Program-made: the position numbers and the translations under genes
Notes under the pieces: generated by a model
Told to the model about the DNA's origin: nothing
What the model saw: only the letters and a program-made list of their open reading frames with translations
Databases searched by the model: none
Shown here: positions 23,324-30,456 of the stretch, piece after piece
How positions within the stretch are numbered: the first letter of the stretch is position 1
How the letters are laid out: every line of letters begins with the position of its first letter
Assembly (NCBI GenBank): GCA_965207735.1
Contig: OZ242296.1
Location: forward strand, 3,840,001-3,904,000
Direction of reading: 5' to 3'
DNA: 64,000 nt
Origin: Candidatus Versatilivorator sp.
GTDB lineage: Bacteria > Acidobacteriota > Terriglobia > Versatilivoradales > Versatilivoraceae

Positions 23324-24810
23324 GAGCCTTTTGCAAAATTCGCAGATAGCGGGAATTTTCACGTGGGGAAAGATCAAGGAGGGCAGGTGGAAGGAGGGGC
23401 AAGACCACTGTCTGTTGTATCATGAAGGTGTCTGAACCACATGATGAACGGAGGTGGAACTTGCCCCTTAGGGAAACCCTATCACGACACTGGTTCCGGT
23501 TTCAACGAGAGCTGTTTCCCCTGCTGGAGGAAGTTTTGGGGCCTCTGGGAGAGCGTTACCAGCGGCTGGTGCAGGTATTGGAGTTGGTGCGGGTGGAGGA
23601 GTTGCTGCCTTACAGTCGGGGCTGGCGTGGCCGGCCGCTGGAGGATCGGGCAGTGCTGGCGCGAGCCTATCTGGCGAAGTCGATGCTGGAGGTGGCGACC
23701 ACGCGGGGATTGGTGGAGCGGCTGAGGAGTGAGGGGAGGCTGCGGCGGCTGTGCGGCTGGGAGAGGGCGTGGGAGGTACCGAGCGAGTCGACCTTCTCGC
23801 GGGCCTTTGCGGAATTCGCTGAGAGCGACCTGCCGGGGCGTTTGCACGAGGCATTGCTGGAGGAGACGCTGAAGGGCCACTTGGCGGGGCATGTGTCGAG
23901 GGACTCGACGGCGATTGCGGGACGGGAAAAGCCAGCGGCCAAGGCTGCGCCGGAGGCCAAGCGGAAACGCCGGCGGGGCCGGCCGCCGAAGGGCGAGCGA
24001 CGGCCCAAGCGGTTGAGCCGGCTGGAGCGGCAGGGGTCGATGACGCTGGAGGAAATGTTGAAGGAGTTGCCCAAGGCCTGCGACATCGGCGTCAAGCGCA
24101 ACGCCAAGGGGCATCAGGAGAGCTGGACCGGCTACAAGCTACACCTCGACGCCATTGACGGCGGGATTCCGGTCAGTTGTCTGCTGACCTCGGCCTCGGT
24201 GCATGACTCTCAGGCAGCCATTCCGCTGGCGACGCTGACGGCAAGGCGGGTCGAGAGTCTCTACGACTTGATGGACAGCGCCTACGATGCGCCGGAGATC
24301 CGGGCCTTCAGTGAGAAGCTGGGGCATGTGCCGATTATTGACGTCAACCCCCGCCGAAGAGCTACCTTGAAAGCCGAGCGGAAGCGGGAGGCACTGGCCC
24401 GGCGCTGTATCGGCCAAGTGACTCCCGAGGCGCGGCGCTACCGGGAACGCTCGACGGTGGAGCGGGTCAACGGACGGCTCAAGGAGGAGTTTGGCGGGAG
24501 GCAGGTGAGGGTTCGCGGCCCCGACAAGGTGAGGTGCCACCTGATGTTCGGCATTCTGGCCCTGACGGTGGATCAGTTGATGCGCCTGACGCTCTGAAGA
24601 CCGGGTTGCCACCCCCAACCGCACAGCAGGTTCGCCCGCCTCAAGGCCGGGAGAGGGTAAGCTGTGCCTGCGTCCGGCGACCGCTGGCCATCCGGCCATC
24701 AGATTCGGGCTTTTTCCTTCAAAAGGGTCTTTGCAGCTGGGTAGTCACCGCCGGAACATCACTGTTGCCAGCCCAATGTCATGCCCGATTCCGAATTTTG
24801 CAAAAGGCTC
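23324..24810 (+). mobile_element. IS copy 4 (no TSD)
   Basis: Same TIRs; flanks agaa and gact differ. Confidence 0.93.
23422..24597 (+). CDS. DDE transposase, 391 aa
   Basis: Protein identical to copy 1. Confidence 0.93.
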   Translation: MKVSEPHDERRWNLPLRETLSRHWFRFQRELFPLLEEVLGPLGERYQRLVQVLELVRVEELLPYSRGWRGRPLEDRAVLARAYLAKSMLEVATTRGLVERLRSEGRLRRLCGWERAWEVPSESTFSRAFAEFAESDLPGRLHEALLEETLKGHLAGHVSRDSTAIAGREKPAAKAAPEAKRKRRRGRPPKGERRPKRLSRLERQGSMTLEEMLKELPKACDIGVKRNAKGHQESWTGYKLHLDAIDGGIPVSCLLTSASVHDSQAAIPLATLTARRVESLYDLMDSAYDAPEIRAFSEKLGHVPIIDVNPRRRATLKAERKREALARRCIGQVTPEARRYRERSTVERVNGRLKEEFGGRQVRVRGPDKVRCHLMFGILALTVDQLMRLTL

Positions 24811-24835
24811 GACTTAATGAAGGATTATCGGAAGT
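24807..24835 (-). other. XerC/D (dif)-like site 1 (outer D-arm abuts the IS)
   Basis: (gctc)gacttaa-tgaagga-ttatcggaagt. Confidence 0.7.
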
Positions 24836-24935
24836 TGAGCCTTCTTGACTTCGTGAAACGCAGTTCAGTAACCTCGTCACACTGATTCCAAAGAATTCAA
24901 CCCGTGTACCAGCGCAGAGGGCGGAGTTCCACCTC

Positions 24936-25268
24936 TTGCTGATCGGAAGCATGATAGTCACCCTGTTCTTCTGGCCGGCCATCGCGCTCAGTGTTCTAGT
25001 TGCCATTGCCGGAGTGATCCTGCGAAGAATCACCCCGTTACTTGTGGCAGCGGCGCTTGTTCTGCCGGCCTCAGCATACCTCGCAGCAACTCCGAGATTC
25101 GAGGTCTGGGGATTGTTCCCGGTTGGTGTCTATCTGCTGGCGGCGCTGGCTATTCACTGGCTTGAAGGGTTACCTGGCAGGACAACCAGCATCTCGCTTA
25201 TTGCCGGGAATGCCTGGTTCTTTTGGGACCTCTTTGCAGAAATATTCAGATTCCCCCTAAATCCGTGA
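24936..25268 (+). CDS. Small multi-TM membrane protein (cassette 1)
   Basis: Very hydrophobic 105-110-aa ORF between sites 1 and 2. Confidence 0.65.
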   Translation: MLIGSMIVTLFFWPAIALSVLVAIAGVILRRITPLLVAAALVLPASAYLAATPRFEVWGLFPVGVYLLAALAIHWLEGLPGRTTSISLIAGNAWFFWDLFAEIFRFPLNP

Positions 25269-25338
25269 GCTTTTCGAGGCAACCTGCGATTTCCCAACCT
25301 CTAGCATACCCCTACGACCTGGAGGTGGATTCTCCCCT

Positions 25339-25367
25339 GGTTGACATAGGTGGACTTTATCGGAAGT
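25339..25367 (-). other. XerC/D (dif)-like site 2
   Basis: ggttgacatag-gtggact-ttatcggaagt. Confidence 0.8.
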
Positions 25368-25390
25368 TGGGGAGAAAACAGCAGGGGAGA

Positions 25391-27956: not shown

Positions 27957-27985
27957 AGTTGACATATTCAACGATTATCGGAAGT
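27957..27985 (-). other. XerC/D (dif)-like site 6
   Basis: agttgacatat-tcaacga-ttatcggaagt. Confidence 0.83.
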
Positions 27986-28439
27986 AGCCTCGACTCATTC
28001 CAAAGGACTTAGAAATATTCTCAGTCTGGATCTCCCCAAAACCACAAGATGTAGGCCGCCGGCAGCCTAGTCGGGAGGCCTCTTGTGGTGTTCCAGGGAC
28101 CGCATTTGAACTCCAGCCCGTCACCAGATCCCCCCTAAATCCTTGAGCTTTGCCGGTCAGGCTGCGTTTTCCGGGACTCCGGGGTGCCCCCCAATACCCT
28201 CGAACAATTCCGGGGCGATTCTGTATCTCACAGAGGGCACCCCGTCGCTCGTTGTGGGCCATCCGGGGTTTTCGCCCGGATCCGCGTGAAAACAACGCAC
28301 ACAGTTGCGCTGTGCTGGATTTTCTTTGGGTTTGATGACCCGTAGTACCAAGGATTTCAGAGGTCTCCGGAATCTAATCAGAAGTATTAGCAACGGTTAC
28401 GGATTCTAGGAAATGATCCCAGAAGGGAGTTCGACAAAA

Positions 28440-28985
28440 CGATTCGCCCCCACTTGAAAACCACCGTCGAACACCATGGCGGCCTCGATGTCGTCATGGA
28501 GAATATCGTCCAATAGGAGCAGGAAAGCCCGGCTTCCAACGGCCGCGAAATGATTGACGTTTTCCGCCTCGGGGGGGCAAGGACGTGGCGTCGTATGGGT
28601 GGCCACCTTTCCGATGGGGGGTGGCTCACACAGGTGGCTCACCAAGTGGCTCACGCTTTTGACCACTCCAACGCTCCTCTCTCAGAGGGCGAAGTCCTCG
28701 CCGTCGTGGTCCAGGTTGTGCCCGGAAACCCGCATTGGAAGCGGGTTGGCACGGATTCCCCGAGTCCTCTGCGGTAAAGCGTAGTGCGGTGCCGGCGCCG
28801 CGCTTCCCCGCCTCGCATGGTACGTCGTGGCGTCGCACAGGAGGGGGAGGAAGTGGAGGGAGCGACCCCCTGGTTTTTGGCGCTGGTGCGCCACCGGGCA
28901 GGGGGAGGTGGCGCGCATGAAAATTCGCACCATCTCCCCTCCCGGGCGGGGGTCGCTCCCTCCACAGTGATCCCTGCGGGAAGGC
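28440..28985 (-). repeat. Non-coding module (inverted copy) with three gtggctcac direct repeats
   Basis: Highly similar to the reverse complement of 40577-41110. Confidence 0.75.
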
Positions 28986-29894
28986 CTAAACACTGAAGAC
29001 TTGGACTCAGGTTGCCCTGCTTTACCTGGCTTTGACTGCTGCCGGGCTTCGCGCCTCTGGTTCAGGCAAGATGAGGCCTTGCGCTGAAACCAGCCGCTTG
29101 AGTATTGTGTGTCTTATCGGTTCAAGAAGTCAGGGGCGGGACACTTGAATGGATGTCACAATCATGTGTCGTGGGTAGGTCTTATTTCTGCGATATGCCA
29201 TCGTTTTGAGTAAAGAAGAAAACCGGCATAATTGAGTTACTGCGCGCAGAAAAGGCCTGAAGGCTCGAGCGCTTCGGCGGGCGAACACCCTTAGCACCCA
29301 TCAGAGGCGCAGGAAGCAACTTTAGGGTTTGAGGCACGTCAGGGGCAGGGAAGACACAGCCTGTCCAGCAAAGCTCGAGGAATTTCGGGGCTTCACGATG
29401 AAACTAGAGAGCGTTGAGATTGTCCTTTTGCTCGGACCGGATCCAGTCATTGCCACTGGCAACGTCATTGGTGTTGAGGAAATTCCTGATGGAGCACGTT
29501 TCACTTTGCGAACCAGTGCAAGAGTTTCCCGTTAATCGAAGCTGCATGGCAGGCGAGGAAAATTCGAGATCTCCAAGGTAGAGCAGAACGGGGATCGGTG
29601 GATAGTTGAGGGTAAGCGACTTGGCAGCGAACACTGAGCCGCATCCGGACGGTGCCTGATCTAGTGAAATTCCGGGATACTCGGGTATGCCAGATCTTGA
29701 GAAAACGCAGCAAGGGTCAACGGTGGGCCTCTCTTTGGAGCGGGGCACGCCAACAAATTCCGGTTGTCCCACAGGCGGCGCGACTGCGGTCTCTGAGACG
29801 AAAATCGGGGTGGCGGCAGTTTCTGGCGTACTTCGGTAGACCAGAGAGGGGAAGTGCGGTCTACCCGGCAAAGCTCCAAGGACTAAGGCGGGGG

Positions 29895-30419
29895 ATGGAA
29901 CCCATGATCCACCAAAATGCTCGTCCCGAGAACCAAGACATCGAGAAGCTCCGCTTGGCTGCTGAACTTGGAAATGCCGAGGCGCAATACAAGCTGGGTA
30001 ATGTGTACTACCTTGGTGAGGGAACGCCCCAGGATTATGCCGAAGCCGCGAAGTGGTATCGGCTGGCGGCTGAGCAGGGAAACGCTGCGGCACAAAACAA
30101 CCTGGGGGTCATGTACGACGAGGGGGAGGGAGTTCGGCAGGACGACAGGGAGGCGGTGAAGTGGTATCGCAAGGCGGCCGCGCAGGGAAACGCTTCGGCT
30201 CAATACAATCTGGGAGTCATGTACGACCTGGGTGAGGGCGTGCCGAAGGATCGTGTGAAAGCCTATGCCTGGCTGAATCTTTCCGCCGCCAATGGCAAGG
30301 AGAACGCTGCCAGAGGTAAGGACTTGCTCAGATCGAGGATGACCGCCGAGCAAGTGTCCGAAGGGCAAAAGCTCGCTGCCGAGCTGTTCGACCGCATCGA
30401 ATCCTCACGATCTCAGTAA
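29895..30419 (+). CDS. Sel1-repeat protein
   Basis: GNAEAQYKLG, AAEQGNAAAQNNLGVMY and KAYAWLNLSA. Confidence 0.9.
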   Translation: MEPMIHQNARPENQDIEKLRLAAELGNAEAQYKLGNVYYLGEGTPQDYAEAAKWYRLAAEQGNAAAQNNLGVMYDEGEGVRQDDREAVKWYRKAAAQGNASAQYNLGVMYDLGEGVPKDRVKAYAWLNLSAANGKENAARGKDLLRSRMTAEQVSEGQKLAAELFDRIESSRSQ

Positions 30420-30427
30420 CTCCTCCA

Positions 30428-30456
30428 ACTTCCGATAAGACCTACCTATGTCAACA
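30428..30456 (+). other. XerC/D (dif)-like site 7 (opposite orientation)
   Basis: acttccgataa-gacctac-ctatgtcaaca, 8 bp after the Sel1 stop. Confidence 0.82.

Follow-up and report, generated by a model that had tools for sequence, protein, structure and literature searches.

What kind of element sets a row of small genes between 29-bp sites that resemble the chromosomal site dif, and what moves these genes? This question is raised by a 64,000-nt stretch of DNA (the window) from Candidatus Versatilivorator sp., a bacterium of an acidobacterial genus found in marine sponges. The window covers positions 3,840,001 to 3,904,000 of contig OZ242296.1 (GCA_965207735.1), that is, 3.84-3.90 Mb of a closed 5.26-Mb genome (G000 below). 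Our analysis indicates that the locus probably consists of single-gene cassettes lying between 29-bp sites that copy the arms of the host dif and all point the same way, with flanks that differ among relatives at these sites, and that these cassettes are likely rearranged by the host XerC and XerD recombinases with no integrase of their own.

A preliminary description of the window had listed seven such sites with variable, non-identical 7-bp centres, six of them direct repeats. A pattern search allowing up to 3 mismatches recovered exactly these seven in the same places and orientations, while 100 dinucleotide shuffles gave a mean of 0.00 matches. All seven consist of an 11-bp arm, a 7-bp centre and a second 11-bp arm, 29 bp in total; we refer to the arms as XerC-type (C) and XerD-type (D). 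Sites 1 to 6 are direct repeats on the minus strand between 24807 and 27985: site 1 (24807..24835, centre TCCTTCA), site 2 (25339..25367, AGTCCAC), site 3 (26128..26156, GGTCCCA, with one change in the C arm), site 4 (27021..27049, TATCGGG), site 5 (27152..27180, GGTCTCC, whose two arms are the same as in the dif of related genomes) and site 6 (27957..27985, TCGTTGA), the first or platform site. The intervals between them measure 503, 760, 864, 102 and 776 bp. The array ends at a multi-copy DDE insertion sequence (IS) of 1,487 bp (23324..24810, plus strand) that interrupts the D arm of site 1 after 7 bp, replacing its last 4 bp. Only one of the many copies of this IS in G000 sits in a site, with a second case in L225, so that it does not target the sites as a rule. 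Site 7 (30428..30456, plus strand, centre GACCTAC) had been counted with the array; it belongs instead to a separate, oppositely oriented unit, where it follows the end of a Sel1-repeat gene (29895..30419, plus strand) by 8 bp. This unit has a 94% identical twin at 1.535-1.536 Mb of G000, and such gene-plus-site units recur in the genus. The array is not an assembly artefact, since sites 2-6 are covered without differences by contigs of two runs, X1 and X2, from a single sample that is possibly the source. Nested matches between the centres of sites 1 and 6 and of sites 3 and 5 (5 of 7 bp) were no more than expected by chance (2/15 pairs versus a background of about 11%). Folding of 120-nt windows on the seven sites, both strands, gave z values of -1.4 to +1.7 and no attC-like hairpin signal; an Rfam search matched nothing, and comparison by eye of site orientation with the replichores showed no clear bias.

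The proposal that these arms match those of dif for XerC and XerD could be substantiated in the host itself. A single 6-bp-centre site at 700,804 in G000 is close to where GC skew peaks (729 kb) and to the polarity switch of the FtsK-orienting polar sequences (KOPS), 25 kb from xerD in a region that is syntenic with relatives. Site 5 has the same D arm as this host dif, and in the dif sites of L039, L280, L316 and L322 neither arm departs from the cassette consensus. The array, at 3.865 Mb, is 2.1 Mb from dif (0.70 Mb) around the circle. The genome has one xerC and one xerD, whose products pass the NCBIfam cut-offs of TIGR02224 and TIGR02225, and searches of it gave no match over cut-off for the integron integrase IntI or for a Xer activator of the DUF3653 type, a family name that we take to denote XafT. 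As an aside, the host XerD (L001:1099-2325; G000 674.4-675.6 kb) repeats a segment of ~39 aa about three times in tandem within its N-terminal domain; similarly long XerD frames are present in G002 and G006 and absent from G005 and G009. We rejected a link between this expansion and site number, since the expansion does not track site count.

Each interval between sites 1 and 6 holds one open reading frame (ORF), of 105, 238, 243, 30 and 206 aa in turn, and each of the five products has a hydrophobic segment, either N-terminal or membrane. By cassette we mean a gene together with the site located at its XerC-side end. The earlier picture of one tightly fitted gene for a secreted or membrane protein per interval thus holds for the number and type of genes; it does not hold for their layout, in that genes 2, 3 and 4 are co-oriented with the sites, genes 1 and 5 oppose them, and gene 3 reads through site 3. 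Gene 1 (24951..25268, plus strand) has three hydrophobic segments and no family match. Gene 2 (25391..26107, minus strand), with a signal-like N-terminus and a hydrophobic segment, starts 20 bp past site 3 and belongs to a hypothetical family of Acidobacteriota, for which glycine-zipper-like clusters offer no more than a lead. Gene 3 (26122..26853, minus strand) is a distant paralogue of gene 2 (28% identity), and its passage through site 3 likely arose by a short deletion between 10-bp repeats. The same deletion explains a break at 26156, the C-arm edge of site 3, in L171 and run X3, and we dropped this break as a crossover. Gene 4 (27056..27148, minus strand) encodes a single-helix peptide of 30 aa in a 102-bp mini-cassette that recurs with other neighbours in run X6, while gene 5 (27273..27893, plus strand) has a signal-like N-terminus and is DUF4412-like by language-model features. 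Apart from one weak, sub-cut-off NCBIfam match, none of the five ORFs matched a family in Pfam, NCBIfam or PHROGs; overall, 0 of 9 ORFs searched against PHROGs matched, leaving the cassettes without phage genes. Among site-adjacent genes of the genus, all 6 large ones with Pfam matches encode Sel1 or ankyrin repeat proteins, and 4 other ORFs matched nothing.

These sites are not confined to one locus. The scan of the genome and its relatives that the preliminary description had recommended, made with an arms-only matrix trained on 43 sites with 7-bp centres, all with arms near the consensus, found 22 sites in G000 (16 with 7-bp, 4 with 6-bp and 2 with 5-bp centres) and 1, 0 and 1 weak matches in three shuffled genomes. 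When centres of 5-8 bp were allowed, 14 genus genomes gave 55 exact matches: 39 centres are 7 bp long, 13 are 6 bp, 2 are 8 bp and one is 5 bp. Eleven of the 13 matches with 6-bp centres are likely dif, and 39 of the 44 non-dif matches have a 7-bp centre. The 7-bp motif is present in 12 of the 13 other genus genomes and in 0 of the 17 other genomes of the family that were searched. Neighbouring site pairs are direct in 96 of 101 cases, with overlapping loci counted twice. Named Acidobacteriota records with the motif include Ca. Versatilivorator, and it also occurs in Planococcus and Tectomicrobia records, while the 6-bp form of the arm pair is on roughly 1,100 contigs, as estimated from a partial scan. 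The largest sets come from Bacillales: Ectobacillus panaciterrae (G041, L239-L248) has 138 exact matches and E. funiculus (G043) 47. Their centres are 6 or 7 bp long, the sites cluster in direct orientation on either side of single genes and of gene-less spacers of ~60 bp, and in Ectobacillus 6- and 7-bp sites occur behind the same flank. In ten Bacillales regions, picked as site-rich or as dif candidates, 49 of 52 neighbouring pairs are direct, and the arms of the arrays equal those of that host's candidate dif. Cargo in Bacillales is mixed, so that the surface-protein cargo noted earlier is typical of this genus only. Finally, 20 of 20 viral loci examined (contigs L251-L270) have, in the part of each contig retrieved, a single site with the same arms and a 7-bp centre, resembling a resolution or attachment site.

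If these units are cassettes, their neighbours should change at the sites, and this is what comparison within the genus reveals: as the preliminary description anticipated in proposing gene-cassette shuffling, order is not invariant among relatives. Clustering the flanks of 60 genus sites gave few upstream classes (the leader described below, the Sel1 gene end and the gene 2/3 end), each joined to several downstream classes. Downstream of the 13 leader sites, 3 flanks are shared and 3 unique; for the 16 Sel1-end sites the figures are 5 and 4. Homology to the leader reaches site 6 and stops there in 11 other genus loci, at the outer D-arm edge in 8 and within 12 bp beyond it in 3. G002, for example, is 96% identical up to the end of site 6 and then continues into a Sel1 gene, and G005 carries orthologues of genes 2 and 3 (60% and 57% identity) between sites in reversed order. 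Contigs of three runs from other samples (X3, X4 and X6) show further such changes: in X4 the leader and site 6, at 97% identity, are followed by the flank that follows site 4 in the window; X6 has mini-cassette 4 with either of two different flanks after it, as well as contigs that break where arm and centre meet in sites 5 and 6; and in X3 a break lies 2 bp inside the centre of site 4. Contigs of X1 and X2 contain no joint at a site; as contigs lose rare variants, this is uninformative on excision. One joint in these runs, from 27249 to 25407, was considered as a rearrangement and is best read as a paralogous locus at 1.077 Mb of G000.

The first site of an array differs from the others in what precedes it. 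A sequence of ~105 bp on the XerC side of site 6 (27986..28090, minus strand) is common to 13 leader sites, with its spacing to the site fixed in 13 of 13. It contains an inverted repeat, CCACAAG/CTTGTGG, at -103/-63 and, in all 13, a predicted -35-like hexamer and, at a spacing of exactly 18 bp, a -10-like hexamer built from the C arm and the first centre base. This base is T in 11 of 13 leader sites versus 10 of 41 other sites (p 0.0002). Co-oriented genes often begin 3-35 bp after a site, which leaves no room for a promoter of their own; together with the conserved leader boxes, this leads us to predict that the leader is a promoter resembling the integron cassette promoter Pc, an accessory sequence as at cer and psi, or both. 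A search of the leader against plasmids found nothing. Of two half-sites reported earlier, the lone XerC-type arm at 28375..28385 (minus strand) is kept in 7 of 13 aligned leaders; the one at 31121, which is not part of the array, has no partner arm and lies in the end of an integrase remnant, and arms with one mismatch occur at 0.8 per 64 kb, so it is not supported as a site. A second leader in G000 (182,062-182,899) is followed by a decayed first site, a paralogue of gene 2 (79% identity) and a further site whose centre is 5 bp long.

One relative connects a leader directly to the chromosomal dif. In G010 (L391:4492-4602), the leader and C arm are followed by a 6-bp centre, a D arm and the chromosomal dif flank. 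The centre is identical to the dif centre of G012 and G013, the dif-side flank is 85-95% identical to relatives over 2.4 kb, and the normal C-side flank ends another contig. This is the right-hand junction expected if a leader-bearing element had entered dif by a crossover on the XerC side. Past the junction, G010 has three tandem units of ~95 bp, each with an inverted XerD-type arm, and an inverted arm occupies the same place in G003.

The junctions also bear on where within a site exchange occurs. Among 39 junction types of the genus, the first centre base goes with the C-side flank (p 0.007), while the last centre base (p 0.023) and the first D-arm base (p 0.003) go with the D-side flank; since neither related genomes nor site pairs are independent, the p-values given here overstate the significance. 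In E. panaciterrae the centre tracks the D flank over the C flank, with the last 3 bp identical in 76% versus 55% of pairs; a filled/empty pair there is identical at 337 of 338 bp up to the C arm and has 3 centre bases in common, and differs by two cassettes. On these comparisons the crossovers map inside the site, and host XerC/XerD are the likely catalysts.

Not all of the evidence points the same way, and several observations weigh against cassette movement by XerC/XerD as we read it. The G010 junction is a single case in a 530-contig assembly, and an empty platform, in which a leader site is joined to the commonest tail flank, was not found among the 60 genus sites. In the genus junctions the middle centre bases do not go with the D flank, and the break in one X6 contig falls on the XerD side, so that the fit to a route through XerC only is not a clean one. 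Adjacent centres in the window agree at 0-4 of 7 bp and differ in their XerC-proximal bases, unlike the outcome of repeated insertion at one site with a 3-bp match. Paralogous cassettes in G000 are only 73-85% identical and no identical cassette occurs in two places, which suggests that movement here may be old. Close homologues of gene 3 (93% and 91%) and gene 5 (88%) are also found where no site is intact, and in G004 members of the gene 2/3 family stand in tandem although clustered sites were not found there; in these scans L175-L179 were covered at a high threshold only.

How might such an array work? The 7-bp and mismatched centres would exclude these sites from the normal two-step recombination driven by FtsK. 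The most likely route would be a single strand swap by XerC beside the C arm, independent of FtsK, with the junction then resolved by replication, as for the attachment site (attP) of VGJ phage. On such a route the centre should move together with the XerD-side flank, an expectation with which G010 and Ectobacillus agree and the genus set agrees in part. The leader would serve as a platform, with a promoter reading into the first cassette and possibly a site for accessory proteins as at cer and psi, and integrase islands that carry arrays as cargo would spread them. Extending this scheme, we put forward, as a tentative model that is somewhat less likely to be right than wrong, that the arrays represent a widespread and undescribed class, a "Xer integron", in which host XerC/XerD insert, excise and reorder one-gene circles behind a promoter platform, tolerating mismatched centres through single-strand exchange and replication. 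Circular intermediates and the capture of new genes would be integral to such a system.

Other explanations of the sites need not involve Xer recombination at all. That they are operators, or another protein-binding motif controlling small genes, is made conceivable by the overlap of the first site with the predicted -10 box in 13 of 13 leaders and by the genes that start shortly past a site. Most sites, however, are in accessory DNA, at the 3' ends of genes and where homology breaks off, their centres vary, and their spacing and arms copy dif; the preliminary description had named an operator upstream of core genes as the finding that would speak against cassettes, and none was seen before core genes, so we regard this as hardly credible. 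A P4-like island integrase might instead recombine the sites. Overlaps of 7 bp are typical of lambda-family integrases, G000 encodes about 30 P4-like integrases, and these are paired with a hairpin-rich repeat of ~520 bp (53 matches in G000); 7 of the 12 site-bearing loci of this genome lie within 10 kb of that repeat, a zone that makes up 14% of the genome (p 0.0004). The sharp ends of that repeat have no motif in common with the sites, however, and 5 of the 12 loci are away from islands. Together with arms equal to those of the host dif, with the same arms in Bacillales arrays that match their own host's candidate dif, and with the joining of the G010 leader to dif, this renders an island integrase very improbable. 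On this proximity to islands, the arrays are mostly island cargo.

Two further alternatives treat the sites as Xer sites. In one, the sites would be used as plasmid dif (pdif) sites are, with two-step recombination only between matching centres, modules exchanged via cointegrates, and neither one-site circles nor a platform. Centres do form families, as all 16 that start with TA end in GG, GA or AG, neighbouring centres in some arrays are nearly identical (L041, 5-7 of 7), breaks fall on both sides of the centre, and pdif rearrangements require identical or one-off spacers (PMC13141974). Such use is nonetheless unlikely given that G010 joins a leader of the 7-bp family to a 6-bp dif centre, that 6- and 7-bp sites share an Ectobacillus flank, that a fixed leader precedes the first site, and that orientation is direct and not alternating. 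In the other, the array would be a fossil record, now immobile, of circles or plasmid pieces that each carried a Xer resolution site and were added one by one. The single, resolution-site-like sites of the 20 viral loci suit such a history, as do the damage to sites 1 and 3 and the divergence of paralogous cassettes, and arrays of integrative mobile elements exploiting Xer (IMEX) arise by successive integration (bioRxiv 10.64898/2026.06.12.731946). What makes an immobile relic distinctly unlikely is that platforms 96-97% identical carry different first cassettes, that order is reversed in G005, that the cassettes lack phage genes and that the arms of the 43 training sites remain near consensus. 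Rearrangement of single-gene cassettes by the host recombinases remains our preferred reading.

Several features adjoin the array. Within the window, the ~520-bp island repeat occupies 28462..28986, and beyond it lie the integrase remnant (31118..31738, minus strand) and, next to the remnant, an intact P4-like island integrase (31797..33035, plus strand). Two copies of a 30-bp repeat (20777-20806 and 22222-22251), which we take to resemble a type I-E CRISPR repeat, flank a gene for a 432-aa ankyrin protein, with a third copy at 4,586,584 of G000. A 1,165-aa protein with OmpA, PKD and tandem Ig-like repeats is encoded at 14773-18270 by a gene with near-identical 234-bp repeats. Elsewhere in G000, KOPS polarity and GC skew are both reversed between 4.0 and 4.5 Mb, which suggests a large inversion.

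If the Xer integron model holds, near-universal dimer-resolution enzymes can run an integron-like system, one that reaches superintegron scale (138 sites in E. panaciterrae) and, in the genus studied here, diversifies surface proteins and Sel1 and ankyrin repeat proteins. Direct-repeat arrays with mismatched 7-bp centres would then need a different reaction from that of Acinetobacter. Xer-driven gene modules have so far been described mainly in that genus, with alternating 6-bp sites, and the movement of single modules is still debated there. Arrays of the present kind have neither IntI nor attC and are consequently missed by integron finders, while the abundance of the same sites in culturable Bacillales makes the mechanism testable without culturing this bacterium.

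The arrangement had been put forward as undescribed. This holds for the combination, of which we found no description, and does not hold for its parts, each of which has a precedent: a 7-bp centre in VGJ attP, directly repeated dif-type arrays in IMEX at dif, and alternating 6-bp sites in pdif modules. In the literature searched, which excluded most subscription papers, we found no account of ectopic, direct-repeat, single-gene dif arrays, so that some of this ground may already be covered by surveys of pdif sites in bacteria other than Acinetobacter. Integrons are defined by IntI, attI, attC and Pc. Like them, the array has a platform with a predicted promoter followed by direct-repeat sites separating mostly single, often promoterless genes; unlike them, it lies in a genome without IntI, its sites are short double-arm copies of dif and not attC hairpins, and some of its cassettes face backwards.

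Closer parallels exist among systems that use the host Xer enzymes. In Acinetobacter, pdif sites are 28 bp long with 6-bp spacers and alternate between C/D and D/C orientation, identical or one-off spacers recombine, and two modules excise together (PMC13141974; PMC12907356). There, as here, XerC/XerD-type host sites bound small gene modules in rows that have no recombinase of their own; those modules are shuffled and their "dif module islands" can be chromosomal, and the present array likewise appears in different contexts with breaks at sites. In contrast, the sites described here are 29 bp long with 7-bp centres (7/7 in the window), are all direct, have dissimilar centres, bound one gene per interval and follow a conserved leader. 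Among IMEX, the VGJ attP is 29 bp long with a 7-bp centre and undergoes one XerC exchange resolved by replication (PMC4246890; bioRxiv 10.64898/2026.06.12.731946), and elements of Vibrio cholerae leave directly repeated dif-like sites by successive integration; these are phages or satellites, several kb long, that replicate, integrate at dif and in some cases may supply an activator of Xer (PMC4246890; bioRxiv 10.64898/2026.06.12.731946; PMC9226527). Our sites share the attP-like length and centre and the direct repetition, and the G010 junction resembles such an event. The units here, however, are single genes of 0.1-0.9 kb with no phage family or DUF3653 match, situated far from dif, and integration at dif is represented by the one leader-bearing junction of G010. 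At cer and psi a Xer core site lies beside accessory DNA, and the longer, 8-bp centre of cer goes with XerC-only exchange (PMC5357621). The leader is a candidate for such accessory DNA, with the difference that cer and psi are single dimer-resolving sites whereas here a leader stands at the first site only and the sites bound different genes. The sites of the present array are themselves dif-like, with two 11-bp arms that match the dif of a host encoding both XerC and XerD.

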